Source: Candidatus Achromatium palustre (lineage in GTDB: Bacteria > Pseudomonadota > Gammaproteobacteria > Chromatiales > Chromatiaceae). Taken from it: DNA of 20,221 nucleotides. The stretch's first letter is position 1. Each line of letters starts with the position of its first letter. The stretch spans positions 1 through 20,221 of the forward strand of contig LFCU01000241.1 in NCBI GenBank assembly GCA_001044195.1, given 5' to 3'. This document shows positions 2,220-20,044 of this stretch, in pieces. The position numbers were made by a program, and so were the translations under genes. The notes below the pieces were generated by a model. The model did not search any database. It was not told the DNA's origin and was given only the letters and a program-made list of their open reading frames with translations.

Positions 2220-3109
2220 TGCGTTGTTCCCAAGGCTTTTTGGGGCTTATTCCTTTTGGTGAAGCGTAGTTCAATGCGTCTTCGAGAAGGGACGTTTTTA
2301 TTTTGGGCACCCTGCAATATGTTATTGTTTGGGGAAATAAGTTGTGATCCTGAGTAAACTCTAAAAACAAGTTGTTTTAAGCGTGGATCATTTGATCTTG
2401 CAAATATATTAAACAATGCTGCCGCAACAGATAAGGCGCGAGCTAGTCCGAGATCTGCATTTGAGCCAATTTGTAGTTGTCTAATCACGTTTGCTGATGT
2501 AGGTCCGAATTGAAAATTTCTTAATTTGGTATCCAGATTGGATGCTCTAGATCTTACTGGTATTCCATCAGTATGCCCTATAACTTCTATTACTTCGATT
2601 GGATAATCTTTAATGATAGCTAATATTTTGGGAACTATGTTTTGTTCTAAACGGCCTTCAAATTCAGGAGATACATTACTACTTCCAGATGTAAAAACAT
2701 AACCTGAAGCTTCTTGTAATGGAAATACTAAGGGCTTATCTGGCCTACGTTTTAATTCACCTTCTAAACCTTTAATGCGAGCTGTGTAATGGGATCGATA
2801 GGTTTGCAGTCTTTCTACTAATCTTTCTAATTCAGCCTCTAAAACTTGAATACGGTTTGCGCTATCTGTACGATTTGTTCTACAAGTTTGCAGTGTTTGT
2901 TCTAAATTTTCAATATTTTGTGAAGAATTTAATTGATGTCGAGTTAATTCTATTCCTAATCTTTTTATCTCTTGTTTTAATTTTTGCAGTATACCAAAAT
3001 GCATGGTATTATCCACCACCCATAAAATCAATACTAACATCAATATTGCTAAAATTAGATCTGTTAATGATGGCCAAAATGACACTTCATCTTTCTGTTT
3101 GTTAAACAT
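2216..3109 (-). CDS. MotB/ZorB-like stator subunit (about 298 aa). It has an N-terminal TM helix with a conserved Asp, an approximately 90-aa coiled-coil linker, and a C-terminal OmpA-like peptidoglycan-binding domain.
   Basis: The TM segment is LTDLILAILMLVLILW, with the D-x12-W spacing seen in MotB. The OmpA motif GHTDG...NxxLGLARALSVAAAL is present. The start was chosen at the internal Met (MFNKQKDEVSFWPS, ATG at 3109) by homology with the N-terminus of the paralog (MFRKYQEEVSFWPS). The 339-aa track ORF from 3235 would overlap the upstream small ORF. Confidence 0.75.
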   Translation of the reverse strand: MFNKQKDEVSFWPSLTDLILAILMLVLILWVVDNTMHFGILQKLKQEIKRLGIELTRHQLNSSQNIENLEQTLQTCRTNRTDSANRIQVLEAELERLVERLQTYRSHYTARIKGLEGELKRRPDKPLVFPLQEASGYVFTSGSSNVSPEFEGRLEQNIVPKILAIIKDYPIEVIEVIGHTDGIPVRSRASNLDTKLRNFQFGPTSANVIRQLQIGSNADLGLARALSVAAALFNIFARSNDPRLKQLVFRVYSGSQLISPNNNILQGAQNKNVPSRRRIELRFTKRNKPQKALGTTQ

Positions 3110-3152
3110 AAACAAGCATCCTGAATTGTTGTACCTAAAAATAGATAGCTTA

Positions 3153-3407
3153 TTACTGTAATTTGTATTCCAGTACCATGTCCCACTGTTCAGGATTAAG
3201 CAAAGAATCTTCAAGATCAGATGAATCGGTATCATCTAAAAAAACAGCCATATCACCTTCAATTGTTACATAAATATTTTCTAAACGTTCTAATTCGGTA
3301 TCAAATACATATCGCATTGCATCTACATCAACTGGTAGTGTTGCATTGATATTGTTTTTTAACCAATTTTCAATATCTAGGCTGCGTTTTGTCCATTTAT
3401 CAATCAT
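3153..3407 (-). CDS. Small acidic protein (84 aa), paralog of 1971-2219. It is translationally coupled to the upstream MotB-like gene.
   Basis: There is an ATGA start/stop overlap with 3404-4045. The N-terminal 30 aa are identical to the paralog, and the acidic tail DDTDSSDLEDSLL is conserved. Confidence 0.6.
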   Translation of the reverse strand: MIDKWTKRSLDIENWLKNNINATLPVDVDAMRYVFDTELERLENIYVTIEGDMAVFLDDTDSSDLEDSLLNPEQWDMVLEYKLQ

Positions 3408-4045
3408 TGCGTTGTTCCCAATACTGTTTGGGGTTTATTCCTTTTGGTGAAGCGTAGTTCAATGCGTCTTCGAGAAGGGACGTTTTTATTTTGGGCACCC
3501 TGCAATATGTTATTGTTTGGGGAAATAAGTTGTGATCCTGAGTAAACTCTAAAAACAAGTTGTTTTAAGCGTGGATCATTTGATCTTGCAAATATATTAA
3601 ACAATGCTGCCGCAACAGATAAGGCGCGGGCTAGTCCAAGATCTGCATTTGAGCCAATTTGTAGTTGTCTAATCACGTTTGCTGATGTAGGTCCGAATTG
3701 AAAATTTCTTAATTTGGTATCCAGATTGGATGCTCTAGATCTTACTGGTATTCCATCAGTATGCCCTATAACTTCTATTACTTCGATTGGATAATCTTTA
3801 ATGATAGCTAATATTTTGGGAACTATGTTTTGTTCTAAACGGCCTTCAAATTCAGGAGATACATTACTACTTCCAGATGTAAAAACATAACCTGAAGCTT
3901 CTTGTAATGGAAATACTAAGGGCTTATCTGGCCGGCGCATTGAAATATCTACTATCCATAAAATCAACACTAATAACAATACTGCTAAAATTAAATCTGT
4001 TAATGAGGGCCAAAATGATACTTCTTCTTGGTATTTACGAAACAT
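3404..4045 (-). CDS. MotB/ZorB-like stator subunit, short form (213 aa). The TM helix is joined directly to the OmpA-like domain, so it lacks the coiled-coil linker of its paralog.
   Basis: The TM segment is LTDLILAVLLLVLILW. The OmpA-like domain is nearly 100 percent identical to that of the paralog. The RRPDKPLVF junction follows immediately after the TM helix. Confidence 0.75.
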   Translation of the reverse strand: MFRKYQEEVSFWPSLTDLILAVLLLVLILWIVDISMRRPDKPLVFPLQEASGYVFTSGSSNVSPEFEGRLEQNIVPKILAIIKDYPIEVIEVIGHTDGIPVRSRASNLDTKLRNFQFGPTSANVIRQLQIGSNADLGLARALSVAAALFNIFARSNDPRLKQLVFRVYSGSQLISPNNNILQGAQNKNVPSRRRIELRFTKRNKPQTVLGTTQ

Positions 4046-4150
4046 AATGCTTTAATGAAATTATTAAGAATCACTATTAAATGATTTAATAGTTTGATTT
4101 ATAAATGTTTGTATATAATATTATATGGTTTATTGTATGAAATGTAGGTA

Positions 4151-5962
4151 CTACCCATTCCACCACTTAGATAATTTTGAACTTGAAACTTTAGTATTAG
4201 TCTGGTTTAGTACGTTAGAGAGATTTGCAATAGATACCTGCAATAACTTCATGTCATCATGGAAATTTTTATCGTATTGATGAGATGGGTTAGCACTACT
4301 TAACAATGAACCAATTTTTGTTTGCAATTCCGAAGCCATAGCATTTGCAAATACCGTTGGTAAATTTTGTAGAAGAGTTTGATGTAATTGTTGTTGAGTT
4401 GATATTGCGGTCTTAATTGCGCTGGAAAAATTGCGAAACTCGGTAATAAGGCTGGTATTATGTTGACTAGAAACGTTTGTACTATTTGCTAATGAATCAA
4501 GCTCCGCTTGTAACTTAGAAGTTATGGCATCTGCAATTATCATTGGTAGATCTTCTAACAGATTTTTAGTGTTTGCGGCTTCTGTCGTGACTGTATTTGA
4601 AAAATTGCTAAATTCAGTATTAAAGTTCGTTAGTTCCGTTTTCCATTGTACTGTAATGCTGTTTAACAATTTGCCATATTTATCAATGTTGCTAGTTGTT
4701 ACAGCTAAACTATCAATAACAGTTTGCAAGCTTTTAACTGAATTGGTTGCTTCCGTAGCAGTATCTAAGACAGATTTGGTTAAATTAGCTGTCTCCTGGT
4801 GCAAGATAAACAATTCTTTGTTTTGGGCAGTTGAAAGCTCTTGCATTTTTACTACAGCATCTTGTAATTGGGCATAACGCTGTTCTGCTGGACTAACCGC
4901 CTGATATAGTTTATCCATAGCTTGCAAAAAAGGGGCATTTGAGGCAACACTTTTATCGAAACGATTAGCTGCGGTATTAAGAGTATTTGCCGCTTGCCCT
5001 ATACTCTGTATAATTGGTGACAAAGCTGCTGCAAATTGGGTCATAGCATCTGTTGTATTTTGGGCTGATTTATTAATGGCTGCTATGGCACTATTGTTGG
5101 TATTATTGATGTTCTTAGCAGAAGTGTCAAAAGCATCAGACAATAGTTCACTTCCTATTGAAATTGTATCCATAAATTCAGTTATAGATTTATTAGTATT
5201 TGCAGCTAATTGGTTAATACCCGTTATGGCACTATCGCTTGTATTATTGATGTTTGTAGTATAAGTATCAAAGGCTTCAGATATTTCTTGGCTTTTTGTT
5301 GAAATAGTATCACCAAGTTTAGAGATAGATTCTTCGGTTTTTTCTGATTGAGTTTCTATTATTTTAATTTTATTGCTATCATTCCATGGAATTAAAACTT
5401 TGCTGGCAAAATTTACAAAATTTCGTGCAGCTATATTGTATGTAGGATCAAGCAATCCGAAGCGAATAGCCTGTAATATCAGCGTTGCAATGACTCCAAA
5501 GATGCTAGGCCAAAACGCACTAGTAAGTGCCTCTTGTAATTGTTGATAGGTATCTTGATTTATTCCCTCTGGAACAGCATAATGTAACGAAAATAAGGTA
5601 CCAGCGATACCACATAGCAACACTACTGAAATGGCATATCTTCTAATACCAATAAGAATCTTAATCCATAACTCATTTGGCTCAATAAGATCAATAGCCG
5701 CTTCTGGTGCATGATCAGTTGCCAAAATTCGATTAAATGCTGGTCTTAATGGGTGATTTTTTCCTATTTTGCGATCTAGCCAAGCTCGCATATTAGTAGG
5801 ATCAGTATTTCGTAAATCATATTCAAGATCTGCAATAACTTTGGACTGAGTATACCAAAACCGGATCTCCAAAATAAAACCAATAATAGCTGAAATACTT
5901 AAGATAGCTATTATTCCTATAAATATTATAGAAGCTGTAGACATGTTTAAAAGTATAGACAT
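4151..5962 (-). CDS. MotA/ExbB/TolQ-like membrane protein with a roughly 420-aa low-complexity helical C-terminal tail (603 aa). It looks like a ZorA-like motor subunit.
   Basis: It has three predicted TM helices in ExbB-like topology: residues 10-32, then around 100-125 (LLCGIAGTLFSL), then around 150-175 (IFGVIATLILQAIRFGL). The tail from about residue 190 to 603 is rich in N/T/S/A/Q, contains internal imperfect repeats (for example SxAFDTxxxNINNT), and has no TM. The gene sits directly upstream of two MotB-like genes and directly downstream of the kinase, with a 27-bp gap. Confidence 0.7.
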   Translation of the reverse strand: MSILLNMSTASIIFIGIIAILSISAIIGFILEIRFWYTQSKVIADLEYDLRNTDPTNMRAWLDRKIGKNHPLRPAFNRILATDHAPEAAIDLIEPNELWIKILIGIRRYAISVVLLCGIAGTLFSLHYAVPEGINQDTYQQLQEALTSAFWPSIFGVIATLILQAIRFGLLDPTYNIAARNFVNFASKVLIPWNDSNKIKIIETQSEKTEESISKLGDTISTKSQEISEAFDTYTTNINNTSDSAITGINQLAANTNKSITEFMDTISIGSELLSDAFDTSAKNINNTNNSAIAAINKSAQNTTDAMTQFAAALSPIIQSIGQAANTLNTAANRFDKSVASNAPFLQAMDKLYQAVSPAEQRYAQLQDAVVKMQELSTAQNKELFILHQETANLTKSVLDTATEATNSVKSLQTVIDSLAVTTSNIDKYGKLLNSITVQWKTELTNFNTEFSNFSNTVTTEAANTKNLLEDLPMIIADAITSKLQAELDSLANSTNVSSQHNTSLITEFRNFSSAIKTAISTQQQLHQTLLQNLPTVFANAMASELQTKIGSLLSSANPSHQYDKNFHDDMKLLQVSIANLSNVLNQTNTKVSSSKLSKWWNG

Positions 5963-5989
5963 GTTTATAAATAATCCCTAATTTATTAA

Positions 5990-7354
5990 TTATATCGAAT
6001 TTGTCATTGGTTCAATAGATACTCGCCCGTGTGCAAAGTCAAACGCCCTTACTCCTACAAACCGAAATGCGTGATTACGTTTACATCGTAGTTGCCTCCC
6101 AGAAGCAAGATGCACAATCCAGGTATCATTGCTTAAATTTTTGAGAGTCATCCCACGTTCTGGTGTCTCTTTTATTTCGGCCATTGGACGCTTAAATTGA
6201 AATTCCTGATTATCCAAATGGTGCTCATAGAGTTTGCGTCCATGAGTCGCTAAAATTTTAGTACCATTAGAAAATTTTAAATACCAACGTTTATTTGGAT
6301 GCTTGGTATCGCAAAATAGACATGTACAATTCTGATCGGAGATAAAAAAACGTTGGTGACAATTAGAGCATTCCGCCATACATTCCAACGCTTGCCAAAA
6401 TTCTCTAGCCCAAGTTGCCGCTGAATGGCGTTTTGTAGGATTTTTAAGCCCAATGGTGAATACTTGTTGAAATCTAGTTTGCATGGACTTTGGCAAATGA
6501 GCAAATGGAATACCATTAGTAGTAAAACGATTCCTACTATCTGTAGGATGTTCAGTAAAGATAGCACTAGTACCAAGTCCCTCATCTTCAGTCATGTAAT
6601 CCAAATTAAAATTCGGATCAACATCGCCTATAAATGGATGCCTAAACATGACTAAATAAAACAGTAGTACGGCCAAACTATGTCGATCCGTTTCCGCAGA
6701 TGGATGTGGATGTTGTGCTGTTATAAGCTCTGGTGCTCTAAAACCAGGAGTTCCAGCTACTTTTACTGGCAGATAGTTACTATTCCCACATGCAAGATTA
6801 TCGCAATCAATAAGACATATACTACCATCAGAGGTATTAAAAAATACATTACCCAAAGATAAATCGCAATGAGTCATCCCATGGCTATGAATCATCCGTA
6901 ACGCTTGCGAAAGGTAGAAGCCTGCTAATAAAAAATGATGATATTTATCATAATTGCTAAGTACAGAACGCAGGGCTGCACTTATAAATGGATTGGGTTG
7001 GTCATAAGGATCTGTAAGTAATGAATCGTGATTCAGTGGTTTACCTATCGCCAATTCCATTAGTACGCCAAATTCATTAGCAGAACTATATATAGCTCTG
7101 GGAAAGCAAACTTGGGCTTGGGGTAAAGTCCTGGCAATTTCTTTGGCAACATCGATGATTGTTTCTAGGCGTTCTTGCTGTTGATATAGTTCTGCTTGAG
7201 CGGGTAGTTTTTTAAATAATTTAAGGGCCATTTTATGGCTATCATGAGTGCGCTGGACTTGCCAGACATCAGCCTGTTGTCCAGAGCCTAGTGCAGCTTT
7301 ATACTTATATTCTTCGCCGTTAGTTGTAGTAAAGTTGGAGTTTTCTGTAGGCAT
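5990..7354 (-). CDS. Hanks-type Ser/Thr protein kinase (454 aa) with a C-terminal Cys-rich zinc-ribbon and an additional uncharacterised roughly 100-aa domain
   Basis: Kinase motifs are present: a G-loop LGSGQQADVW, the lysine in ALKLF, the catalytic loop HCDLSLGNV, a DFG-like DCD, and GTPGFRAPE. Cys clusters include CMAECSNCH and CTCLFCDTKH. Confidence 0.85.
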   Translation of the reverse strand: MPTENSNFTTTNGEEYKYKAALGSGQQADVWQVQRTHDSHKMALKLFKKLPAQAELYQQQERLETIIDVAKEIARTLPQAQVCFPRAIYSSANEFGVLMELAIGKPLNHDSLLTDPYDQPNPFISAALRSVLSNYDKYHHFLLAGFYLSQALRMIHSHGMTHCDLSLGNVFFNTSDGSICLIDCDNLACGNSNYLPVKVAGTPGFRAPELITAQHPHPSAETDRHSLAVLLFYLVMFRHPFIGDVDPNFNLDYMTEDEGLGTSAIFTEHPTDSRNRFTTNGIPFAHLPKSMQTRFQQVFTIGLKNPTKRHSAATWAREFWQALECMAECSNCHQRFFISDQNCTCLFCDTKHPNKRWYLKFSNGTKILATHGRKLYEHHLDNQEFQFKRPMAEIKETPERGMTLKNLSNDTWIVHLASGRQLRCKRNHAFRFVGVRAFDFAHGRVSIEPMTNSI

Positions 7355-7366
7355 GATATTAATAGG

Positions 7367-8272
7367 TTACAGATTGTAAAATACAGCTACCAGTGTTTTA
7401 TCATCATCAGAAAATTTATGTTCTTCCCAGTAATTACAATATGCTGTGGCATATTCTTCTAAAGCTACTGGATCATCTAAGCATTGTTTTAATTTTGGCC
7501 ATATAGCACTAAAATATAAGTTGGGATCGCCAATACTTTCACTCAGCCCATCGGTCATAAGGCAGAAACCTACACTATCTTTGTATTCAGTTATTCCAGG
7601 ACTTGACTCTGCAAAACCACGTTGCCATTCAGTGTTGGTTAACGGTCGAACTTCATTGACAAAGCCTTCACGTATATTTTCAGTTAAAAGCTGTGCTGCA
7701 ACTTTATCATCTGGTCTTGAAGAGATTTTATATATAGCACCATCTCCAACGATTGCTGCCCAGTAACCTTCAGAGTTTAAATATAGTAGTAATGCTGTTG
7801 TGGCGTATTCTGTTAAGTAGCCATCTACTAATGTTTGTGAAGATGTTTTTATATCCTGGGTATCATCTTTATTTTTATGACCAGTTTTATTTTGCTCGTT
7901 ATCTTCTTGGCATAATATTACAAACTTATCTCTAGCGTCAGTAAAGTAGTCTTTCAATTGATTGCTATTAAGAATACTTGTGCTTGCACCACTAAATACT
8001 TGACCCAGGGCAGTACAAGCACATTCAGCTCCTTTACGAGAGCGTGATCTGGTACTTACTCCATCTGCTACGGTTAGAGTCAGTGATTTAATATCATCTA
8101 CTTTTGTAGGTGTAGGCCAGTAAGCAGTAAAATCTTGGCATTCTGTACTTTGATCCACATGAGCTTTACCACGCCAAGAAAACGTTACAATTGCTATACT
8201 TTTGCCAGATATGTTGTAACGTTTAATTTTTGGAGGTATGCTAAAATGCTCAGAATTTAAATAAGCAGTCAT
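7367..8272 (-). CDS. PP2C-family Ser/Thr phosphatase (301 aa), the TerY-P phosphatase component
   Basis: Metal-binding Asp/Gly motifs are present: VADGVS, VGDGAIY and LMTDGLSE. It lies 8 bp after the vWA gene and 12 bp before the kinase gene. Confidence 0.8.
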   Translation of the reverse strand: MTAYLNSEHFSIPPKIKRYNISGKSIAIVTFSWRGKAHVDQSTECQDFTAYWPTPTKVDDIKSLTLTVADGVSTRSRSRKGAECACTALGQVFSGASTSILNSNQLKDYFTDARDKFVILCQEDNEQNKTGHKNKDDTQDIKTSSQTLVDGYLTEYATTALLLYLNSEGYWAAIVGDGAIYKISSRPDDKVAAQLLTENIREGFVNEVRPLTNTEWQRGFAESSPGITEYKDSVGFCLMTDGLSESIGDPNLYFSAIWPKLKQCLDDPVALEEYATAYCNYWEEHKFSDDDKTLVAVFYNL

Positions 8273-8279
8273 AGTGCTT

Positions 8280-8954
8280 TTAATTAACTAACTGAGTTCC
8301 AGGAATCTCACTTATGGGTCGTTTTTCTGAAATTTCTACTGTCAATGTCCTTAAATTTTTAAAAAAGCCACTGATAGTAGCTTGATCTTTCAGTCTAACA
8401 ATGTGCGATTTTTCTCTACCCTTATGGTAAAAGGCAGTTAAAACCGAATCGTTTATATCATCACCGGCTCCAGCAATTACTCTAATTCCAGCGACTCTAC
8501 CTGATGGTCTAGTGCCTATAAGAGGATTTTCATTCATAAGCTGTAATTGATCTTTCCAAGCTTGTTCGGAGCAATTAGGGTTACCATCGGTGATAAATAC
8601 AAATAATGGTTCTTTGCCTTTTTTTAATTCGTTTTTATTACGTTCTACTAATGCTAATACTTCTGCTAAACCTGCATCAAGGTTTGTGTATCCTGCTCCC
8701 ACTTCAATTTGAGGAATATCTATAGAGCCAATAGGTTGATGTTCAATGATAGTCTCAGCAATATCGCTAAAAGTTATCACCGATATAAAGACAGAATCAC
8801 GGGTATCTTCATTGCTTTGCAATTCTTCGATGTAATCACGAATGCCATTATTAGCCTGTTGTATACCAACTGGCTCCATACTATAAGATACGTCTACTAA
8901 CAATATAATGGGTATGGGTTTACGTGCAGTTGCACCATCTGGTATTTCAATCAT
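8280..8954 (-). CDS. TerY-like von Willebrand factor A domain protein (224 aa) with a MIDAS motif. It is the first gene of the operon.
   Basis: The MIDAS motif DxSxS is present as ILLVDVSYSM, with downstream FITDG. An AGGAA ribosome-binding site lies about 10 nt upstream of the ATG. An 876-bp AT-rich non-coding region lies upstream. Confidence 0.85.
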   Translation of the reverse strand: MIEIPDGATARKPIPIILLVDVSYSMEPVGIQQANNGIRDYIEELQSNEDTRDSVFISVITFSDIAETIIEHQPIGSIDIPQIEVGAGYTNLDAGLAEVLALVERNKNELKKGKEPLFVFITDGNPNCSEQAWKDQLQLMNENPLIGTRPSGRVAGIRVIAGAGDDINDSVLTAFYHKGREKSHIVRLKDQATISGFFKNLRTLTVEISEKRPISEIPGTQLVN

Positions 8955-9011
8955 GCTTTATTTATTCCTAATATATTACGACAAATAGTGGATTTCATTT
9001 TGTTTCTACTT

Positions 9012-9041
9012 ATTCTACATATTAATAGGCACAAAGATCAA
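9012..9041 (-). promoter_or_regulatory. Candidate sigma70-type promoter for the TerY-P/ZorAB-like operon (TTGATC-N18-TAGAAT on the minus strand)
   Basis: A -35-like TTGATC (reverse complement at 9036-9041) and a -10-like TAGAAT (reverse complement at 9012-9017) are separated by an 18-nt spacer, about 60 nt upstream of the vWA start codon. This was found by eye only. Confidence 0.25.
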
Positions 9042-9101
9042 CTACTTTCCAATTGCACTATAAAGGTCAAATTGTATTTGACACTATCTATATCAATTTT
9101 A

Positions 9102-9130
9102 GGGCATCCTTCATTTCTCAGTGTACAATT
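9102..9130 (-). repeat. Copy of the dispersed bipartite X/Y motif (reverse complement: AATTGTACACTGAG-AAATGAAGGATGCC)
   Basis: Its X unit matches AAATGAAGGATGCC at 9539-9552, and its organisation matches 1881-1907 and 15189-15225. Confidence 0.5.
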
Positions 9131-9400
9131 TATAGATTGGTTATATTTTTAGCATTCTTTATCAATACCTCGATGCTCAAAAGTTAGAAAACGCTTATAT
9201 ACTTAGATATGTTGACATTACATATTTTAATTAGATTTTTACTTGATTAGCTCTACTCAATATTGTATACGTTCTATCCTGTAGAAGCCTTATAGCTTAA
9301 GTAATTAAAATATTACCTAATACTAACTTTTGAACATCAAGAATGCTGATGCGAATATCCTATTTCCAATTCAAAAAGTGGGCATCATTCACCAACACCC

Positions 9401-9433
9401 AAAAGTAGTTTACACTTTAAGAAGGATGACGAC
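9401..9433 (-). repeat. Y-unit (AAAGTGTAAACTACTTT, reverse complement) plus a degenerate X-like unit (GAAGGATGAC). It forms a 17-bp inverted repeat with 9556-9572.
   Basis: AAAGTAGTTTACACTTT at 9401-9417 is the exact reverse complement of AAAGTGTAAACTACTTT at 9556-9572. Confidence 0.5.
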
Positions 9434-9520
9434 AAGTAAAATAAATTTTTTCTTAACTTGAAACATCTGATATATAAACACTTTTTAGAAATAAAAAATA
9501 TTTTCAATTTTTAATGTCCT

Positions 9521-9597
9521 TAAAAAGTGTTAACCGACAAATGAAGGATGCCAAAAAGTGTAAACTACTTTGTAGACGGAAATAAAGAATGCCACGA
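9521..9597 (+). repeat. Cluster of X/Y motif units: a Y-like unit, X (CAAATGAAGGATGCC), Y (AAAAAGTGTAAACTACTTTG), then an X-like unit (AAATAAAGAATGCC)
   Basis: The units were read directly from the sequence. They sit in the 876-bp intergenic region between the vWA gene and the second SiaB-like gene. Confidence 0.5.
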
Positions 9598-9720
9598 TTA
9601 AAATTGGATATGATTTCTTCCCCAATTATAACTTTATGCTTATTAAACAGGGAGAGGTTTTTAAATAATATCTAATGTTACAAATTTAATTTGGAAAAGT
9701 AGAATTTCTTAACAGAACAA

Positions 9721-9786
9721 TATAATGCGCATTAAACTTGATATGCACCAACGGGATGATATCACATTACTTGGTGTACGTATTTA
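9721..9786 (+). pseudogene. Relic 3' end of a PP2C/SpoIIE phosphatase gene (encodes MRIKLDMHQRDDITLLGVRI-stop). It is an imperfect direct repeat of 1771-1847.
   Basis: It is about 85 percent nucleotide identical to the last roughly 25 codons of the phosphatase gene at 855-1847 (IRIQLEMHQQDELQRDDITLLGVRV-stop). It carries a 15-nt in-frame deletion flanked by CCAAC microhomology. The final 35 nt are 31/35 identical. Confidence 0.6.
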
Positions 9787-9831
9787 AATATAGATAAAGA
9801 TTACCATAAACTTAAAATAGAGACAAAAATT

Positions 9832-11244: not shown

Positions 11245-14200
11245 TTATTGCTTTATAAGTTTTTCGAGTTTTTCTACCTCATTCTTTGCGTTAGTATGTC
11301 CCTGAGCAGCAGCCTTTTGGTACCACTTTAGAGCCTCTTTGTAATCTTGAGTGACTCCGTCGCCATTGTCATACATAACGCCAATATTGTATTGCGCATC
11401 AGCATCCCCTTGAGCAGCAGCCTTTTGATACCACTTTAGAGCCTCTTTGTAATCTTGAGGTACTCCTTGGCCATTGTCATACATAAATCCAATCTGTAAT
11501 TGTGCATTAGCATTCCCTCTAGCAGCGGCCTTTTGAAACCACTTTAGAGCTTCTTTGTAATCTTGAGATACGCCTTGGCCATTTGCATACATAAATCCAA
11601 TATAAATTTGAGCATCAGTATGTCCCTGAGCAGCAGCCTTTTGATACCACTTTAGAGCCTCTTTGTAGCTTTGATGGACTCCTTGACCATTGTAATACAT
11701 AAGACCAATATTGTATTGCGCACCAACATTCCCTTGAGCAGCGGCCTTGCGATACCAATTTAGAGCCTTTTTATAATCTTTAGGCACTCCTTGTCCATTT
11801 GCATACATAACACCAATATTGTATTGCGCATACGCATCACCTTGAGCAGCAGCTTTTTGAAACCATTTTAATGCTTGATTGTAATCTTGAGGTATACCCT
11901 TGCCACTAAGGTATATATCACCTATCCCATTTTGTGCATCGGCATTACCTTGATATGCGGCTTTATTCCACCACTCTAATGCATCCGCGTAGTTTTGATA
12001 TATTCCTTGGCCACTGTAGTACATAAAACCAATATTGTATTGCGCATCAGCATTCCCTTGAGCAGCGGCCTTGTGATACCACTTTAGTGCCTCTTTATAG
12101 TCTTGAGGTACGCCTTGACCGTTGTGATACATAACACCAATATTGTATTGCGCATTAACATACCCTTGAGCAGCGGCCTTTTGATACCACTTTAGAGCCT
12201 CTTTGTAATTTTGAGGTACTCCTTGGCCATTGTAATACATAAGACCAATATTGGATTGCGCACCAACATTCCCTTGAGCAGCAGCCTTTTGATACCACTT
12301 TAGAGCCTCTTTGTAATTTTGAGGTACTCCTTTACCAATGTTATACAGGGCACCAATATTGCTTTGTGCTTTAGCATTCCCTTGAGCAGCAGCCTTTTGG
12401 TACCACTTTAGAGCCTCTTTGTAATCTTGAGATACGCCTTGGCCATTTGCATACATAACACCTATCCCATTTTGTGCATCGGCATTACCTTGAGCAGCGG
12501 CCTTGTGATACCACTTTAGTGCCTCTTTATAGTCTTGAGGTACGCCTTGACCGTTGTGATACATAACACCAATATTGTATTGCGCATTAACATACCCTTG
12601 AGCAGCGGCCTTTTGATACCACTTTAGAGCCTCTTTGTAATTTTGAGGTACTCCTTGGCCATTGTAATACATAAGACCAATATTGGATTGCGCACCAACA
12701 TTCCCTTGAGCAGCGGCCTTGCTCCACAATTTGAATGCCTCTTTGTAGCTTTGAGGAACACCTTTACCCAAAGCGTACATCAATCCAATATTGCTTTGTG
12801 CTGTAGCATTCCCTTGAGCAGCGGCCTTGCGATACCAATTTAGAGCCTCTTTGTAATCTTGAGATACGCCTTGGCCATTTGCATACATAAATCCAATCTG
12901 TAATTGTACATTAGCATTCCCTTGAGCAACAGCCTTTTTATACCACTTTAGAGCCTCTTTGTAATTTTGAGGTACACCTTGGCCATTGTAATACAGCCCA
13001 CCAATATTGTATTGCGCACCAACATGCCCTTGAGCAGCAGCCTTTTGGTACCACTTTAGAGCCTCTTTGTAATTTTGAGGTACTCCTTGGCCATTGTGGT
13101 ACATCCAACCAATATTGTTTTGAGCAGATTTAAGTCCTTGAGCAGCAGCTTTGTGGAACCATTTCAAGGCTTTTTTGTAATTTTGAGTTACATTTTTGCC
13201 AAGATAATAAGTAATGCCAATATTAAATTGCGCATTAGCATATCCTTGAGCTGCTGCTTTATGAAACCATTTTAGAGCCTTCTTAGGATCTTTAGGTATA
13301 CCTTTACCATCACGATACATAACACCAATATTGTGTTGCGCCTCAACATGACCTTGAGCAGCAGCTTTGCGATACCAATTTAGAGCTTCTTTATAATCTT
13401 TAGATACACCTTGGCCATGGTGGTACATCCAGCCAACACCGACTTGCGCAATAGCATCACCTTGAGCAGCAGCTTTGTGGAACCATTTCAAGGCTTTTTT
13501 GTAATTTTGAGGTACACCTTGGCCATTGTAATACAGGCTACCAATATTGTATTGCGCACCAACATCTCCTTGAGCTGCTGCTTTATGAAACCATCTAAGA
13601 GCTTCTTTGTAGTCTTTGGTTACGCCTTCACCATTGCGGTACACCAGACCAATATTGTTTTGTGCTCTAGCATTTCCTTGGGCTGCTGCTTTGTGATACC
13701 ATTTAAGAGCTTCTTTGTAATCTTTGGCTACGCCTTCACCTGAACTATAAGCAATGCCGACAGCATTTTGTCCGTTACTATTATTTTGCGCAGCAGACAG
13801 ACGAAACCATTTCAATGCCTCTTTAGAATTCTGGGCTACGCCTAGCCCCATAGCATATATTTTACCAAGCTCATATTGAGCTTCAGCATCACCGTGAGCT
13901 GCTGCTTTGCGATATTTTTTTAGAGCCGCTGCTTGATCTTGGGGAGAACTTGAAGAATTATCCTCATGTTTCGGAGCCTCTAACTTTGCTAGTTTTAATT
14001 CCATACTCGCTGTTGTGGCCTTAAACTGTTGCTGCATCTGTTGCATACGTGATTCTAACTGCTGACGCTGTTGGCGTTCGGCAGCTAGTTGAGATTGTAA
14101 TCTAGCAACTTGCGGATTTTCTACAACTGGTGGGCTGGAGAGATACAGGGCATCTTCTAAAGAGGAAGAATCCCAAGGGATTTGAAAGCCTCTGGTCTCT

Positions 14201-15090
14201 TGCTTTACATCCTTACGTACCTTACGCAGAACAAACTGAATATCCCCTGGAGTATTGATATATTTGAGGAGATGCTTGGTAAAAGTACCATTACGACCAT
14301 GACCATCCTCAGCTACACTATTAGGACTCGTTGCATAGACTAATAGAGTATCCGATGGAGTATTCATCCTTGCCAAACCTGAACGCATTCTCCGGCCCTT
14401 GACACCACGGCTTAAAAATGGATTATTACGACAGGCATCTAAAAAAACTATTTTAGTTTTGGCCGCTTTAATCTTAATCAATAATTGACTGGCACGAATA
14501 GCTTGGCGTTCGATTTGATCTTCACGCTTAAAATACGCATCTACTGGTAATAGATAATTTTCGCCCTTGACCTGAACACCATGTCCTGAATAATAGACTA
14601 AAGCTATATCACCAGCCTGTAATTGCAGACCAAAATTATGGATCGCATCATCCATCTCTAACAACTTGGCATCTTTGAGCAATGCAACTTTAAAACCTAA
14701 ACCTTGCAAGGCATTGCTCATATCCTCGGCATCGTTAGCTGGATTTAATAATGGCGGTAAATCACTCGGCATGGCACTGTAGGCTGAATTACCGATTACC
14801 AGAGCCATACGGCGACTGGTAACTCTTCCTAATGCTTTAGTTTGGGTAGGTTTGGTAACAGGAGGCTTATTGGCTATAGCACCAGAATCACCAGTATTTC
14901 TGGTAGCTATTTTGGTAGCTATTGGAGTAGATTGTTTAGGCTTGCTAGCAACTATAGTACTAGGTTTTTTAGTATCTTTAGTAAACAGATTATTGTTGCA
15001 GCCAGTAATCAATAGAGTTAGGCCGATGCTACATAGCCATAATGGCCATGCAGACAACTGGAGAGTTTTAATTAGTTGTTTTAGAAACAT
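11245..15090 (-). CDS. Large lipoprotein (1281 aa) with four parts: signal peptide and lipobox, a caspase-like peptidase C14 domain, a coiled-coil, and about 25 Sel1-like repeats
   Basis: The N-terminus MFLKQ...LLITGCNNN ends in an LITGC lipobox. The caspase His/Cys dyad is present in YYSGHGVQ and VFLDACRNNPF. A Q/R-rich coiled-coil occupies about residues 320-390. A 36-aa Sel1 consensus (AQYNIGVMYxNGQGVPQDYKEALKWYQKAAAQGN) is repeated through to the C-terminus. Confidence 0.85.
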   Translation of the reverse strand: MFLKQLIKTLQLSAWPLWLCSIGLTLLITGCNNNLFTKDTKKPSTIVASKPKQSTPIATKIATRNTGDSGAIANKPPVTKPTQTKALGRVTSRRMALVIGNSAYSAMPSDLPPLLNPANDAEDMSNALQGLGFKVALLKDAKLLEMDDAIHNFGLQLQAGDIALVYYSGHGVQVKGENYLLPVDAYFKREDQIERQAIRASQLLIKIKAAKTKIVFLDACRNNPFLSRGVKGRRMRSGLARMNTPSDTLLVYATSPNSVAEDGHGRNGTFTKHLLKYINTPGDIQFVLRKVRKDVKQETRGFQIPWDSSSLEDALYLSSPPVVENPQVARLQSQLAAERQQRQQLESRMQQMQQQFKATTASMELKLAKLEAPKHEDNSSSSPQDQAAALKKYRKAAAHGDAEAQYELGKIYAMGLGVAQNSKEALKWFRLSAAQNNSNGQNAVGIAYSSGEGVAKDYKEALKWYHKAAAQGNARAQNNIGLVYRNGEGVTKDYKEALRWFHKAAAQGDVGAQYNIGSLYYNGQGVPQNYKKALKWFHKAAAQGDAIAQVGVGWMYHHGQGVSKDYKEALNWYRKAAAQGHVEAQHNIGVMYRDGKGIPKDPKKALKWFHKAAAQGYANAQFNIGITYYLGKNVTQNYKKALKWFHKAAAQGLKSAQNNIGWMYHNGQGVPQNYKEALKWYQKAAAQGHVGAQYNIGGLYYNGQGVPQNYKEALKWYKKAVAQGNANVQLQIGFMYANGQGVSQDYKEALNWYRKAAAQGNATAQSNIGLMYALGKGVPQSYKEAFKLWSKAAAQGNVGAQSNIGLMYYNGQGVPQNYKEALKWYQKAAAQGYVNAQYNIGVMYHNGQGVPQDYKEALKWYHKAAAQGNADAQNGIGVMYANGQGVSQDYKEALKWYQKAAAQGNAKAQSNIGALYNIGKGVPQNYKEALKWYQKAAAQGNVGAQSNIGLMYYNGQGVPQNYKEALKWYQKAAAQGYVNAQYNIGVMYHNGQGVPQDYKEALKWYHKAAAQGNADAQYNIGFMYYSGQGIYQNYADALEWWNKAAYQGNADAQNGIGDIYLSGKGIPQDYNQALKWFQKAAAQGDAYAQYNIGVMYANGQGVPKDYKKALNWYRKAAAQGNVGAQYNIGLMYYNGQGVHQSYKEALKWYQKAAAQGHTDAQIYIGFMYANGQGVSQDYKEALKWFQKAAARGNANAQLQIGFMYDNGQGVPQDYKEALKWYQKAAAQGDADAQYNIGVMYDNGDGVTQDYKEALKWYQKAAAQGHTNAKNEVEKLEKLIKQ
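11270..13910. repeat. 108-bp tandem DNA repeat of about 24 units encoding the Sel1 repeats, with higher-order near-identical 432-bp (4-unit) duplications
   Basis: For example, 12049-12290 is near-identical to 12481-12722 (offset 432). The protein shows a 4-repeat block duplicated almost verbatim (NVGAQSNIGLMYYNGQGVPQNYKEALKWYQKAAAQGYVNAQYNIGVMYHNGQGVPQDYKEALKWYHKAAAQGNADAQ occurs twice). Confidence 0.85.
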
Positions 15091-15398: not shown

Positions 15399-15794
15399 TT
15401 AGACAGGTTCCACAACCACTAATTCAATATCGCCATTCTCTAGCACTTTTTCTTCCTCAATAATCAACCCCTGTTCTGCTACCTGTTTTTTGATTGCCAA
15501 ATGTGCGTAAACACGATTTACATCCTGCATAAATTCTTCTTCCTGAATTTTAGTAGTTCGTTTAATACCCCACCAATCAGTACAAACGGCGTAAGTGTTA
15601 TCTTCTTGACGTTGAAAACCAATGCTATATCTCCCACCAGTGTCGACTACAATCTGGCCGAGTTCAGTATTGTCTTGATAGCCATAGATTGGTAAATCTT
15701 CACCAGTCTGAAATTCATATTCTAATTGACGTAAAGTCTCCTCTAATAGTATTTGGTCGGTAATTTGGGTTTTAACTTGAGAAAAATGAGACAT
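15399..15794 (-). CDS. DUF1257/Ycf35-like small protein (132 aa from the internal start MSHFSQVKTQI...)
   Basis: From memory, the N-terminus MSHFSxxKTQIxD resembles the Ycf35/DUF1257 family found in cyanobacteria and plastids. An AGGAA ribosome-binding site lies about 9 nt upstream of the ATG at 15794. The longer 153-aa ORF from 15860 lacks a ribosome-binding site and adds a non-conserved extension. Confidence 0.55.
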   Translation of the reverse strand: MSHFSQVKTQITDQILLEETLRQLEYEFQTGEDLPIYGYQDNTELGQIVVDTGGRYSIGFQRQEDNTYAVCTDWWGIKRTTKIQEEEFMQDVNRVYAHLAIKKQVAEQGLIIEEEKVLENGDIELVVVEPV

Positions 15795-15929
15795 ATTAGG
15801 GTTCCTAAAAAATAATTTAAATGTATTATACTCGACTATCCAGTTTTTTTGACTTGACAAATTTGTAGGGCGGGAGAACGAAGTGATCCAGCCTTCTATA
15901 TAAGTTTACTATTTTGCAATAATGTTGGA

Positions 15930-15947
15930 TTGCCAAACAGATGGCAA
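15930..15947. promoter_or_regulatory. Inverted repeat TTGCCA-N6-TGGCAA in the divergent intergenic region between the DUF1257-like and vault-protein genes. It is a candidate operator.
   Basis: The sequence reads ttgccaaacagatggcaa, and the arms extend to 8 bp with one mismatch (GATTGCCA/TGGCAACC). It lies about 100 bp upstream of the MVP start codon. Confidence 0.3.
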
Positions 15948-16045
15948 CCCAACCTACGATGCTTATTGACAAGTGACATTATTCTGGTACATTTTCTTAT
16001 AAACATCCTAAATTTAACTTAAATATAATATTTTAAATAATAAAT

Positions 16046-18562
16046 ATGGAAGACCGAAACTCCAAACGCGACCTGGTGCTAGCCCCAGGTGAATACGCTT
16101 ATATGCAAGATGTCACTAAAGGCGTGATCAAAACTTACACCGGTCCTACAGTGATTAATCCCACCGCTCAAGAACGTGCAGTCTCTTTTAATGAAGCTAG
16201 CAAACGTTTTGAACCTTGTCAAATTGAGCAAGCCGTACAACGATGCGCCATTGCACCTGAAGGCTATTATATTATCCTCAAAAATCCTGCGGTCAAAGGA
16301 GATTTTCCACCCTTTGGCGGAGTATTTCCATCTCCAGATCTAGACGTAGGTAAAAAGATCAATCTCACAGGTCCCTGCATGTTTTCCCTGTGGCCAGGCC
16401 AGATCTTTAAGCTAGTCCAAGGTCATCATTTACGCTCCAATCAGTATCTATTAGTAAGAGTATATAATGAAGACGAAGCCAGGCGTAACTGGACCAAAGC
16501 CATTGTAAAACCAGCAACCACAGATGGCCAAGCTGAAACCACGGATATTATGAGCGATGCCCCACGTGATCTCAACGTGGGCAGCCTCTTTATCATCAAA
16601 GGTACTGATGTCTCATTCTACATCCCACCAACTGGAGTCGGAGTGGTACCAGATGAACATGGCCAATACGTGCGCGATGCCCTTACCTTAGAACGATTAG
16701 AATACTGTATTCTAGTAGATCAAAATGGCAAAAAACGCTTTGAACGAGGCCCTCAAGTAGTCTTCCCTGAACCTACAGAATCATTTATTACCCGTGATAG
16801 CCAACGCAAATACAGAGCTTTAGAACTAAATGAGATTCAGGGTTTACACATCAAAGTCATCGCCCCCTATACTGAAGGCGAACGCCAATACAAAGAAGGT
16901 AATGAAATATTTATCACTGGTAAAGAAACGGCTATCTATTTTCCGCGTGAAGAGCACTCATTGGTACGCTATGATGGTAGAGATAAACACTTTGCCGTAG
17001 CCATTCCCTCTGGAGAAGCTCGCTATGTGATGAATCGCAAGACAGGAGCTATCCACATGGTACCTGGTCCGGCCATGTTATTACCTAATCCTGTAGATGA
17101 GGTGATAGTACGCCGTGTGCTATCTGAAAAAGAATGTAGCACCTGGTATCCAAGCAGCAAAGAGGCTCTAGCCTATAATCGTAGTCTCTACCAATTAGCT
17201 TCTGTAACCCCCACCACCCGCTCTGGTGCTGTATCTGAAGGCGATGTCCAACGCAGCCGCCGTCGTGCTGGAAAAAATGCACCACAGGCATCAGTAGCAA
17301 TGGAAGCTAGTGCAGTAAGCCGTGACACTAACACTATGGCTGGAGATATAGTAGAACGTGGTTCTACATTTACCCAGCCCCGTACTCTAATTTTTAATAC
17401 CAAATTTGAAGGAGTACCCAATGTTAATGTGTGGGTAGGCTATGCCATAATGATTGTCAATAAGCAGGGACAGAGACGTGTTGAACAAGGCCCTAAAAAT
17501 ATCTTGCTAGAATATGATGAAACTTTACAAGCGATTTCATTATCTCGAGGTCGTCCCAAATCTACATCACAATGTTTAGAAACAGTATATTTACGAGTTT
17601 TAAATAATCAAATTAGTGATCGCTGCACAGTAGACACCAGCGATTATGTACGGGTACGTTTAGAATATGCTTTGCGAGTAAACTTTGTAGGTGAACCCAA
17701 TCGTTGGTTTGAAGTTGAAAATTATGTGCAATTTTTGTGTGATCATGTTCGAGCGATACTTAAAGGTGCCATCAAGCATTATAATATCGAAACGCTATTA
17801 GCTGGTGCCTTTGAAATTCTCCACGATATCGTCTTAGGGCCATTAGCAGATGGGAAGCGTACTGGTATGACCTTTGCTGAGAATGGAATGCAGGTAACTG
17901 ACATTGAAGTACTTGAAGTTGCTATTGAGGACAAAGCTACTTCAAATCTGTTAGATAAAGCGCAACAGGAAGTAGTTGAAAACAATGTCGCCTTAGCACG
18001 TGCTAATAGAGAACTTGAAGTGACTCGGCAACGTGAAGCCATTGCACGGCAGATGTTAACTGCTAAAGCTGAAACTTCACAACATCAAAATCAGTTAGCC
18101 ATAAATGTGGTGCAAGAGCAGCTAGAGCTACAGCTAGCTAAAATCCGTTCAGAAATCAATACTCACACAGAAACCGAACAGGCTCATAAAGCAAAACAAC
18201 AAATGTTGGATGTAGAACATCAGGCTAAAATCGAACGTGATAAACAAAGTGCTGATCTACAGCATACCATAGCGAGTCGTAAGCAGGAGTTGCAGCTTGA
18301 GACTCTTAAAGCCGAGGTAGCAAGTGCAGTACAGAGATTTGAGGCTGCCCAAAGTGGATTCTCCGAAGCTCTCTTGGCATTGAATAATCATGAAACCCTA
18401 ATTAAGATTGCCGAGGCTATGAGTGTGCAAAATTTTGTCGGTGGTCGTAGTTTAACTGACGTATTAGATAAGATCTTTACTGATACTCCACTACAGTCTC
18501 TATTAGAAACCGTAAAAAACAAGGCTAGTTTGCCAAATTCTATCACTAAGTCCAGCTCGTAG
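16046..18562 (+). CDS. Major vault protein (MVP) homolog, 838 aa. It has N-terminal MVP repeat domains, a shoulder domain and a C-terminal coiled-coil cap-helix region.
   Basis: The N-terminal repeats match the eukaryotic MVP repeat signature (LAPGEYAYMQDVTKGVIKTYTGP...ERAV; APEGYYIILKNPAV). The shoulder-domain region SLSRGRPKSTSQCLETVYLRV...YVRVRLEYALRVNF closely parallels human MVP [21 protein letters not shown]...HARLQLQLAYNWHF. The last roughly 200 aa are a Q/E/A-rich coiled-coil. Confidence 0.85.
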   Translation: MEDRNSKRDLVLAPGEYAYMQDVTKGVIKTYTGPTVINPTAQERAVSFNEASKRFEPCQIEQAVQRCAIAPEGYYIILKNPAVKGDFPPFGGVFPSPDLDVGKKINLTGPCMFSLWPGQIFKLVQGHHLRSNQYLLVRVYNEDEARRNWTKAIVKPATTDGQAETTDIMSDAPRDLNVGSLFIIKGTDVSFYIPPTGVGVVPDEHGQYVRDALTLERLEYCILVDQNGKKRFERGPQVVFPEPTESFITRDSQRKYRALELNEIQGLHIKVIAPYTEGERQYKEGNEIFITGKETAIYFPREEHSLVRYDGRDKHFAVAIPSGEARYVMNRKTGAIHMVPGPAMLLPNPVDEVIVRRVLSEKECSTWYPSSKEALAYNRSLYQLASVTPTTRSGAVSEGDVQRSRRRAGKNAPQASVAMEASAVSRDTNTMAGDIVERGSTFTQPRTLIFNTKFEGVPNVNVWVGYAIMIVNKQGQRRVEQGPKNILLEYDETLQAISLSRGRPKSTSQCLETVYLRVLNNQISDRCTVDTSDYVRVRLEYALRVNFVGEPNRWFEVENYVQFLCDHVRAILKGAIKHYNIETLLAGAFEILHDIVLGPLADGKRTGMTFAENGMQVTDIEVLEVAIEDKATSNLLDKAQQEVVENNVALARANRELEVTRQREAIARQMLTAKAETSQHQNQLAINVVQEQLELQLAKIRSEINTHTETEQAHKAKQQMLDVEHQAKIERDKQSADLQHTIASRKQELQLETLKAEVASAVQRFEAAQSGFSEALLALNNHETLIKIAEAMSVQNFVGGRSLTDVLDKIFTDTPLQSLLETVKNKASLPNSITKSSS

Positions 18563-18751: not shown

Positions 18752-20044
18752 CTAGGCTAAAAGCAATTCATTCCAACGTGGCAAAGAATAATCATAAGAA
18801 GCCATAACAGTATTCCAAACCGCTACATGATTAAAACGTTCCCAATAAGAACCACCATTACGCCGTTCTCCAGCACGAACAATAATGCGGTTTCGATTAT
18901 CCACAAGATCATGCACTGCTACCTTACCTTGATACCAATAATCCCATTCCGCATCTGACATATAAGGCTTAACTCGGTCTGGTACTGATATATAATATCC
19001 TTGCCGCGCCACATAGGCCCCTGGCCAACCAGATAACCACCAGTTCATATATTCATAAGCCGCATCACGTACCCGGCCCTTGGTACGTTTTGAAAGACAT
19101 AAAACTCCATGCCAAGCACGATAGCCTTCTCGAGGCGCAGCATAGACTACAGGCATACCTTGGGCATTAAGAGAAACAGCGGCAGGTTCAAACATACTAG
19201 AAATTACCGAGCGGCCTTCTAACATGTATTCAGCAGAAACTGGAATAGCATCCCAAAAGCCACTAAAATGTCCAAGCTGTTTTTTGCTGATCAGTAAAGC
19301 GAAAAGTTGATCTAGCTCTGGTTTTGTTAAGTCTCCTAAGTCTTTAAAATTAAGTAATCCTGTAGCTTGTGCGGCTAATGCCATATCAAATAAGCCGATA
19401 GTGGGGTCATTTACTAATGCTACTTTGCCGCGCCACTTATCATCAAGTAGCCAGCTCCAAGATTCAGTGTCATAAGGCTGCCCTCTAGGTATTATTTGGG
19501 TGTTATAACCAAAGGAATCTACATTGTGGACGTAGGGTACAAAGCTAATATAATTTGAAGGTTGGTTGCTTAGAGTGCGATTGTTTTGGACATAGAGCAG
19601 CTCATAAGGTCTATCCCCTAAACCTAATGGTGCATGAGGTGAAAGTCTCCCCATTTTGGTTAAGGAATTAATTTCATCCCAAAGTGGAATGCGTTTCCAT
19701 TCGATAGGTTGGATGGCTTCAGCATCCCATAAAATATTAATGCTATTAGACCATTGTTCATAAACATCAAAAGTTTCAGGTCGCATGGAGGCTTTTTGTA
19801 GTACCTGGGTATTGCCTCCAGCTTCAAAAATGATGTTGATTCCTAGATCTTGCATCACCTGTTGGCGAATTGGTTCTTGGAGGGTGGCATGAGTTCCTAT
19901 AACTCTAAGGGTAGGTTTTGTTGCTGTATGTACCCAAGGGGCGTTTATTAGGGTAAGTCCACCTAATATATTAGCTGTTTGGGTTAGGAATTTGCGACGC
20001 TGTAGGTTTGGTGTATCGCTAATTGCTAAATTTTGTTCTTTCAA
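18752..20044 (-). CDS. Periplasmic ABC-type solute-binding protein (430 aa) with a twin-arginine (Tat) signal peptide
   Basis: The N-terminus has a Tat motif QRRKFLTQTANILGGLTL followed by a hydrophobic h-region. Its size and Trp/Tyr-rich composition are typical of family-1 extracellular solute-binding proteins. The ligand class cannot be assigned from the sequence alone. Confidence 0.55.
   Translation of the reverse strand: MKEQNLAISDTPNLQRRKFLTQTANILGGLTLINAPWVHTATKPTLRVIGTHATLQEPIRQQVMQDLGINIIFEAGGNTQVLQKASMRPETFDVYEQWSNSINILWDAEAIQPIEWKRIPLWDEINSLTKMGRLSPHAPLGLGDRPYELLYVQNNRTLSNQPSNYISFVPYVHNVDSFGYNTQIIPRGQPYDTESWSWLLDDKWRGKVALVNDPTIGLFDMALAAQATGLLNFKDLGDLTKPELDQLFALLISKKQLGHFSGFWDAIPVSAEYMLEGRSVISSMFEPAAVSLNAQGMPVVYAAPREGYRAWHGVLCLSKRTKGRVRDAAYEYMNWWLSGWPGAYVARQGYYISVPDRVKPYMSDAEWDYWYQGKVAVHDLVDNRNRIIVRAGERRNGGSYWERFNHVAVWNTVMASYDYSLPRWNELLLA

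Follow-up and report, generated by a model that had tools for sequence, protein, structure and literature searches.

An MVP-like gene in Achromatium

We analysed a 20,221-nt stretch of DNA (the window; contig LFCU01000241.1 of assembly GCA_001044195.1, positions 1 to 20,221) from Candidatus Achromatium palustre, with a focus on a gene for a major vault protein (MVP) homolog. Achromatium is a giant, hyperpolyploid, calcite-depositing sulfur bacterium. The MVP-like gene occupies 16046..18562 on the plus strand, including the stop codon, and encodes a protein of 838 residues and 94 kDa. On one side it faces a minus-strand gene of the DUF1257/Ycf35 family (15399..15794, 131 residues), and the two ATG codons are separated by a spacer of 251 bp (15795-16045). 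On the other side lies a gene for a solute-binding protein (18752..20044), which is convergent with the MVP gene. The MVP gene is monocistronic, placed between these divergent and convergent neighbours.

The open reading frame (ORF) of the MVP-like protein starts with ATG. Its N-terminus, MEDRNSKRDLVLAP, fits the consensus of 40 relatives (MDERNxKRDLVLAP), which supports the choice of this start codon. A Pfam search for the Vault and MVP_shoulder domains gave two significant matches. MVP_shoulder (PF11978) matches residues 520-629 with an E-value of 2.9e-18 and a score of 66.4 bits (cutoff 25), over positions 2-118 of the 118-position profile, and Vault_3 matches residues 473-509 (5e-8). PF11978 is present in all 40 relatives tested, while the Vault family PF01505 is reached by 16 of the 40 and not by the window protein.

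In a phmmer search against PDB sequences, the protein matches major vault proteins only (rat MVP, 4e-16). HMMER pairs SLSRGRPKSTSQC with a 13-residue segment of rat MVP and YVRVRLEYALRVNF with HARLQLQLAYNWHF, thereby recovering the alignment blocks quoted in an earlier note on this DNA, which had claimed that the shoulder closely parallels that of eukaryotic MVP. A profile of 40 close relatives matches MVP at 2.9e-22, and a profile of 94 diverse representatives matches rat MVP at 2.3e-47. The latter alignment is colinear: residues 469-785 correspond to rat MVP 457-802, which comprises repeat R9, the shoulder and the cap helix, and residues 225-356 correspond to rat MVP 279-409 (independent E-value 9e-4). 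Weaker cross-matches of the same repeat motif land on MVP repeats R3 and R5. Self-comparison of the N-terminal region with hhalign also revealed weak internal repeats between residues 179-250 and 285-356 (E 0.0025-0.03). Across the 40 relatives the mean column identity is 65%, and the N-terminus is nearly invariant. No NCBIfam or PADLOC model matched the MVP-like or the DUF1257 protein, and these models give no tie to a known defence system.

Predicted structure and assembly

The structural analysis is based on an AlphaFold model built from a 96-sequence alignment (41-68% identity), with a mean predicted local distance difference test (pLDDT) score of 70.5. It supersedes an earlier model from 40 close homologs, which had a pLDDT of 53 and an unusable N-terminal half. 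The pLDDT is ~90 for residues 10-160, 80-92 for residues 170-210 and 320-400, and 76-92 for residues 520-760.

In this model, residues 1-519 (16046..17602) form a predicted all-beta repeat region, the counterpart of MVP R1-R9 according to AlphaFold, Foldseek, the profile alignment and Vault_3. All-beta modules extend up to residue 357 and are followed by helices at residues 361-409, a disordered loop at residues 410-445 and further beta modules until residue 519; the helical and disordered insert (~360-445) thus lies inside the repeat region, as in MVP R8. Residues 520-629 (17603..17932) form the shoulder domain defined by PF11978, with an SPFH-like alpha/beta fold and a pLDDT of 80-92. The shoulder leads into a single cap helix of 137 residues (630-766; 17933..18343; assigned by DSSP, pLDDT 76-89), which lines up with its counterpart in rat MVP. 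A coiled-coil cap helix of about 200 residues had been proposed before; the long helix is present, but its length is ~137 residues. The C-terminal tail (residues 767-838; 18344..18559; pLDDT 35-55) contains short helices and lies where MVP has its cap ring. It gives no direct match to the cap ring, and its family-conserved residues include A775, G799, G800 and T814.

The layout closely follows that of eukaryotic MVP (rat, human and rabbit; 4V60, 7PKZ, 9BW5 and 9Z4W). The window protein has 838 residues versus 861-893, and in both the repeats end at residue 519 and the shoulder begins at ~520, followed by the cap helix and then the tail. Both also carry a helical or disordered insert at the R8 position, and both are soluble. 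When the model was compared with the PDB by Foldseek, the top 12 matches were full-length MVP chains of vaults (2e-25 to 3e-19), and ranks 13-16 were the murine MVP R1-R7 crystal structures 3gng, 3gf5 and 3gnf (4e-10 to 4e-9, ~400 columns). The TM-scores are low (~0.18) and the signal is carried by local 3Di alignments. A low TM-score is expected, because a bent monomer model of a nine-domain rod is laid on an extended chain taken from the particle. The ORF at 16046..18562 therefore encodes a true full-length MVP homolog with the whole MVP domain plan. The earlier note had called the 838-aa ORF an MVP homolog with repeats and a shoulder, and Pfam, the profile match to rat MVP and Foldseek bear this out.

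After MVP, Foldseek retrieved the SPFH cage proteins flotillin, HflK/C, prohibitin, stomatin and erlin at 3e-5 to 1e-3. The shoulder and long helix of the window protein, and no other part of it, resemble the SPFH domain and coiled coil of SPFH/band-7 cages (HflK/C, flotillin, prohibitin, stomatin, QmcA), weak Band_7 matches occur in Pfam for 16 of the 40 close relatives (best 3e-5), and NCBI labels some family members 'SPFH domain-containing protein', while the JGI annotation is 'major vault protein'. One might therefore picture a membrane scaffold of the SPFH/band-7 type, which would sit as a cup on the cytosolic side of the cytoplasmic membrane and not be a free, two-halved vault. However, the window protein itself stays below the Band_7 threshold in Pfam, and its matches to MVP in Foldseek are ~20 orders of magnitude better than those to the SPFH cages. 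Moreover, ~520 residues of MVP-type repeats that match the R1-R7 crystal structures precede the shoulder. A membrane anchor is also missing: no hydrophobic or transmembrane segment was found (Kyte-Doolittle hydropathy, taken over 19 residues, peaks at 1.43), the N-terminus is hydrophilic and the isoelectric point is 6.3. From these sequence properties, the protein is predicted to be soluble, with neither membrane anchor nor signal peptide. We consider a membrane scaffold of this kind quite improbable.

By analogy with eukaryotic vaults, the protein probably forms a soluble, self-assembling, vault-like shell, a reading to which we give somewhat better than an even chance. Many MVP copies would pack laterally, as in the rat and human vaults, so that the repeat domains would build a thin wall and the shoulder would provide the bend. 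The cap helices would bundle into a helical barrel that closes the pole, and two half-shells may meet at their N-terminal ends. A hollow, soluble, vault-like shell in the cytoplasm would result. For other bacterial homologs, in-silico docking has predicted lateral association (PMC3762200).

Several observations weigh against this reading. The literature searched contains no experimental study, purification or imaging of any bacterial MVP homolog, and cage formation is thus an extrapolation. For comparison, the eukaryotic vault, a ribonucleoprotein with vPARP, TEP1 and vault RNA, is a closed barrel of two 39-mer half-shells. In the structural alignments, only ~15-17% of residues are identical to eukaryotic MVP. 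Residues 1-215 gave no MVP match against PDB sequences in phmmer, only chance matches (E ~0.26), and in the model the first ~210 residues resemble MVP by predicted fold only. Model confidence is low for residues 215-315, residues 410-455 and the C-terminal tail. The cap helix is ~20 residues shorter than in rat MVP, and any particle could accordingly depart from the eukaryotic vault in symmetry and size; the cap-ring region is not recognisably conserved. Finally, no PARP, TROVE or WD40 domain that would point to a vPARP or TEP1 partner was found among the ORFs of the window. Rfam detected no RNA family in the window, vault RNA included, and no tRNA was found. The Rfam and domain scans agree here with the earlier note, which had reported no vPARP-, TEP1- or vault-RNA-like partner in the window.

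Some of these observations would also fit an MVP homolog that builds no cage and instead acts as a monomer, an open oligomer or a filament, with a role such as scaffolding or providing a platform for binding, in which case the closed shell would be a eukaryotic innovation. Such a state would agree with the lack of any reported particle for a bacterial homolog in that literature, with the low identity to eukaryotic MVP, and with the shorter cap helix and unmatched tail. However, the three assembly modules (laterally packing repeats, shoulder and long cap helix) are kept and colinear, and conservation is very strong over the full length including the N-terminus, as expected for extensive self-contacts. 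The related SPFH proteins form closed cages too. We therefore regard a protein without a cage as unlikely, and the vault-like shell remains the reading we prefer.

Family breadth and origin of the Achromatium gene

To the earlier note, bacterial MVP homologs were rare, with sporadic reports from cyanobacteria and a few other lineages. This view does not hold, and the family is not mainly cyanobacterial. An exhaustive HMMER scan of 1.84 billion representatives identified 1184 clusters (50% identity) at E<=1e-3, of which 902 reach E<=1e-10 and 608 reach E<=1e-30. Among the best 150 clusters, most members have ~800-980 residues, with a few shorter ones, at 38-55% identity. A word-indexed search returned more than 4700 clusters at 90% identity. 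The members come from many phyla and include Myxococcota (Kofleriaceae, Nannocystaceae, Haliangiales, Polyangia), Bacteroidia, Microscillaceae, Eremiobacterota/Xenobiia, Ozemobacteraceae, Desulfobacterales, Anaerolineae (Chloroflexota) and others.

Part of this distribution has been described. Homologs with ~25% identity to eukaryotic MVP were reported from Plesiocystis (two copies), Corallococcus, Microscilla, Saprospira, Flexibacter and Herpetosiphon (Daly et al. 2013, PMC3762200) and were set apart from the eukaryote-like MVPs of cyanobacteria (PMC3762200). The same split between chemotrophic and cyanobacterial homologs was described by Sokolskyi 2019 (bioRxiv 10.1101/872010), and a 2023 preprint added phage copies of MVP. 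The cyanobacterial MVPs (Moorea/Lyngbya F4Y3B4, Oscillatoria) belong to the bacterial MVP family and share the overall architecture, but they are more than 50% identical to eukaryotic MVP, from which the window protein is distant. They cluster with eukaryotic (amoebozoan) sequences and have been taken to be eukaryote-derived (PMC3762200).

The window protein belongs to the type found in chemotrophic bacteria and not to the cyanobacterial, eukaryote-like type. It falls in the same family as the homologs of Plesiocystis pacifica (A6FXM1, A6FXE2), Corallococcus (H8MNI3), Saprospira (H6L4P8) and Microscilla (A1ZGE7) (PMC3762200; bioRxiv 10.1101/872010), with the same Pfam signature and an identity to eukaryotic MVP of ~25% or lower. 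It differs from them in its low-GC gene and in its host, Achromatium, which is not mentioned for MVP in the literature searched. It further differs in being part of a small Achromatium-like clade that is nested among Myxococcota sequences, its nearest relatives being proteins from metagenome-assembled genomes (MAGs) of Nannocystaceae, Kofleriaceae and Polyangia (60-68% identity).

To place the gene within the family, we used loci from a collection with one genome per species, of which 80 were kept (79 from Myxococcota-type MAGs and one from Achromatium sp. WMS2), together with a few additional loci. The 90% cluster of the window protein contains KOR31748.1 (TI05_11665) of Achromatium sp. WMS3, the organism to which the identical DUF1257 protein (TI05_11660) also assigns the window. 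The Achromatium WMS2 ortholog is 84% identical over residues 1-360, where its contig ends. A further locus, P0002, encodes a protein that is 80% identical; given this identity, its GC content of 41% and its RsmJ, Ham1 and Uma2 neighbours, P0002 is probably another Achromatium-like gammaproteobacterium.

In a neighbour-joining tree, the window protein, P0002 and Achromatium WMS2 form one clade. It lies beside L001 and Nannocystaceae/Polyangia sequences, within the first of the two clades made up by the Myxococcota paralogs. The placement is weakened by the lack of support values and by ~20 loci, about a quarter of the total, that form artefactual long branches from extraction of the wrong ORF; these were disregarded, and the placement was cross-checked by pairwise identities. 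With paralog 1 the window protein shares 60-64% identity (68% in the case of L001, the highest value), with paralog 2 51-54%. In the 11 MAGs from which both paralogs were cleanly extracted, the identity between them is 52-56%. By these comparisons, the Achromatium gene appears to have branched off after the Myxococcota duplication, which speaks for a transfer from Myxococcota to the Achromatium lineage. Based on the distance tree, we consider an old horizontal transfer from a Myxococcota-like donor likely.

The transfer would be old, because the base composition at third codon positions is host-like and the WMS2/WMS3 orthologs are saturated at synonymous sites. The GC content of third codon positions is 0.33 in the MVP gene versus 0.22-0.31 in the neighbour genes, against a mean GC content of 70% at the Myxococcota loci; the gene is adapted to the base composition of its host. 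The overall GC content is 0.33-0.43 in the window and 0.44 at the Achromatium WMS2 locus. Compared with Achromatium WMS2 (L079) and P0002 (L082), the proportion of non-synonymous differences (pN) is 0.09-0.12 and that of synonymous differences (pS) is 0.80, which is saturated. In an independent assembly (L081, run SRR1771809), the allele differs at 10 synonymous and 5 non-synonymous positions (dN/dS 0.15). The substitution pattern argues that the MVP gene is under purifying selection and is functional by evolutionary criteria.

Two observations accompany this analysis. Over window positions 15838-16060, which include most of the spacer, L081 shows one indel and one substitution, against 15 nucleotide differences in the gene, and its allele fits the allelic diversity within cells that has been reported for Achromatium. 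In addition, Myxococcota MAGs usually carry two MVP-like paralogs on separate contigs (L025/L056, L026/L070, L021/L050 and eight further pairs), which extends the two-copy report for Plesiocystis pacifica.

No paper tying Achromatium to vaults was found in the literature searched. The family, its bacterial distribution and the idea of horizontal transfer are already published, and the Achromatium host is unreported. The locus thus adds a gammaproteobacterial, giant-sulfur-bacterium host and a probable transfer from Myxococcota to Achromatium; it adds no new architecture, partner or mechanism. It is tempting to speculate that Achromatium builds genuine vault-like nanocompartments, using a gene it took up from Myxococcota, and that the family of about a thousand clusters represents widespread, overlooked prokaryotic shells from which the eukaryotic vault arose. 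We put this broader proposal forward tentatively, at a little under an even chance. Bacterial homologs are simple, genetically tractable systems for the assembly and function of vaults, whose function is unexplained after nearly 40 years, and they bear on where the eukaryotic vault originated.

The DUF1257 neighbour, the spacer and gene context

The DUF1257 ORF is listed from a TTG codon (15399..15860, minus strand). Its PF06868 match (4.7e-18) starts past an internal ATG at 15794, and the product from this ATG (MSHFSQVKTQ..., 131 residues) is identical to NCBI TI05_11660 of Achromatium sp. WMS3. All close DUF1257 homologs likewise have 131 residues and are 61-71% identical. The description of a small, divergent DUF1257/Ycf35-like gene sharing a region of ~250 bp with the MVP gene was thus accurate.

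The spacer also contains the TTGCCA-N6-TGGCAA element reported earlier, located at 15930-15947. It is the core of a longer inverted repeat, GTTGGATTGCCA-N6-TGGCAACCCAAC (15924-15953), with 12-nt arms that are complementary at 11 of 12 positions. Dinucleotide shuffling of the spacer produced an equally good repeat in 70 of 2000 cases, and the window holds 11 comparable repeats; the inverted repeat is only mildly unusual. The best sigma-70-like promoter candidate for the MVP gene in a consensus scan is TTGACA-16-TG-TACATT (15966-15993, plus strand), a pattern match with 10 of 12 consensus positions plus the TG motif, 53 nt upstream of the ATG. The MVP gene would presumably use this promoter. The repeat lies 13 nt upstream of this site and overlaps weaker candidate -35 boxes on the minus strand. 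The repeat may be an operator. A conserved operator was considered and dropped, since nothing equivalent was found ahead of the Achromatium WMS2 ortholog or at the 90 other loci scanned. A sigma-54 reading of the TGGCA and TTGC motifs in the spacer was likewise rejected by inspection, as the GG-to-GC spacing is 15 nt and not 10.

This arrangement had led to the suggestion that the DUF1257 gene is co-regulated with the MVP gene or is its partner. In that scenario the two genes would form a pair under a shared operator-like repeat, and the DUF1257 protein would work with the bacterial vault or be carried in it. The divergent orientation, the distance of 251 bp, the position of the 12-nt-arm repeat between candidate promoters of both strands and the frequency of an equally good repeat in only 3.5% of shuffles speak for it. 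However, the adjacency is absent from all 86 other MVP loci that were checked. A hidden Markov model (HMM) built from DUF1257 homologs, which recovered all seven control copies as well as the window copy, found none among the ORFs of 83 informative MVP loci (L001-L080 and L082-L084); L081 (P0122) starts 208 nt upstream of the MVP gene and is uninformative in this respect. Precomputed Pfam annotation showed none at three further MVP loci, from Xenobiia, a Bacteroidia member and the marine bacterium AO1-C.

The closest relatives also carry other genes upstream. In Achromatium WMS2 these are HrpA-like, MoxR-like and coiled-coil ORFs, identified by inspection, and an uncharacterised 168-aa ORF, and in P0002 they are Uma2, RsmJ and Ham1p-like genes. 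The lack of the inverted repeat in WMS2 counts against a shared operator as well. Conversely, seven places with three close DUF1257 homologs (L085-L091) contain no MVP gene. There, in high-GC MAGs, the companions of DUF1257 are genes for DUF2997, AAA ATPases, a Pkinase-AAA fusion, FGE-sulfatase and radical-SAM proteins, sometimes with toxin-antitoxin genes inserted among them, and these clusters appear to be a conserved, uncharacterised module. The conserved cyanobacterial cluster is DUF2997-DUF1257(ycf35)-fed7 (PMC4284462), which again points to partners other than MVP.

We consider a co-regulated pair or a cargo role highly improbable. The divergent DUF1257 gene is an unrelated neighbour and its link to the MVP gene is coincidental. 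The window gene is a clear DUF1257 member with the same 131-aa length as those of the DUF1257/Ycf35-DUF2997 module, but it differs in lacking DUF2997, AAA ATPase and FGE-sulfatase neighbours (best DUF2997 HMM match in the window, E 0.82). Because the window lacks DUF2997 and an AAA ATPase, this DUF1257 copy looks orphaned.

To analyze the gene context more broadly, ORFs of at least 90 residues from the 80 loci were clustered all against all; stop-to-stop ORFs in DNA of 70% GC are noisy, and small partners could escape this comparison. No neighbour cluster is common to more than 17 loci, and the remainder reflects synteny within sub-lineages of 5-10 loci. The commonest cluster is a Ser/Thr kinase, found at 17 of the 80 loci in variable position and orientation, often no more than a few kb from the MVP-like gene. 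Ser/Thr kinases are very abundant in Myxococcota, and the kinases near MVP genes may reflect their abundance in these genomes. The gene contexts in Xenobiia, Bacteroidia and marine AO1-C have nothing in common, and the MVP-like gene is bordered by intergenic gaps in every context inspected. The MVP gene is stand-alone, with no conserved neighbour, and a cargo or partner is not co-encoded. The view of the locus is thereby corrected in three respects: the family is large and phylogenetically broad, the gene stands alone, and the link to DUF1257 is coincidental. As a separate observation, in the Xenobiia MAG L092 two divergent Ser/Thr kinases lie directly upstream of the MVP-like gene (2695-5808).

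The remainder of the window holds several other genes of note. Directly past the DUF1257 gene, the minus strand encodes a protein of 1281 residues (11245-15090) whose N-terminus is hydrophobic and lipoprotein-like and which carries a caspase domain (Peptidase_C14, residues 93-316, 2.6e-46) and 24 Sel1 repeats; it also matches the PADLOC 'caspase' model (2.8e-10). An operon-like run on the minus strand (2216-8954) comprises genes for a VWA protein (8280-8954), a PP2C phosphatase (7367-8272), a Ser/Thr kinase (5990-7354), a 603-aa coiled-coil protein (4151-5962) and two OmpA-like proteins (3404-4045 and 2216-3235). The 603-aa protein matches no Pfam family and gives only weak ZorA/LmuB-like matches in PADLOC (~1e-5). 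Next to this run, ~880 nt (8955-9831) contain no ORF of at least 80 residues and no detected Rfam family, and have the lowest GC content of the window (0.28). A DUF6272 plus SiaC gene pair is present in two copies (85-327/341-730 and 9832-10386/10391-10780), and a SpoIIE/PP2C phosphatase gene (855-1847) adjoins the first. Together, the two pairs and the phosphatase gene look like duplicated partner-switching modules of the SiaABC type.

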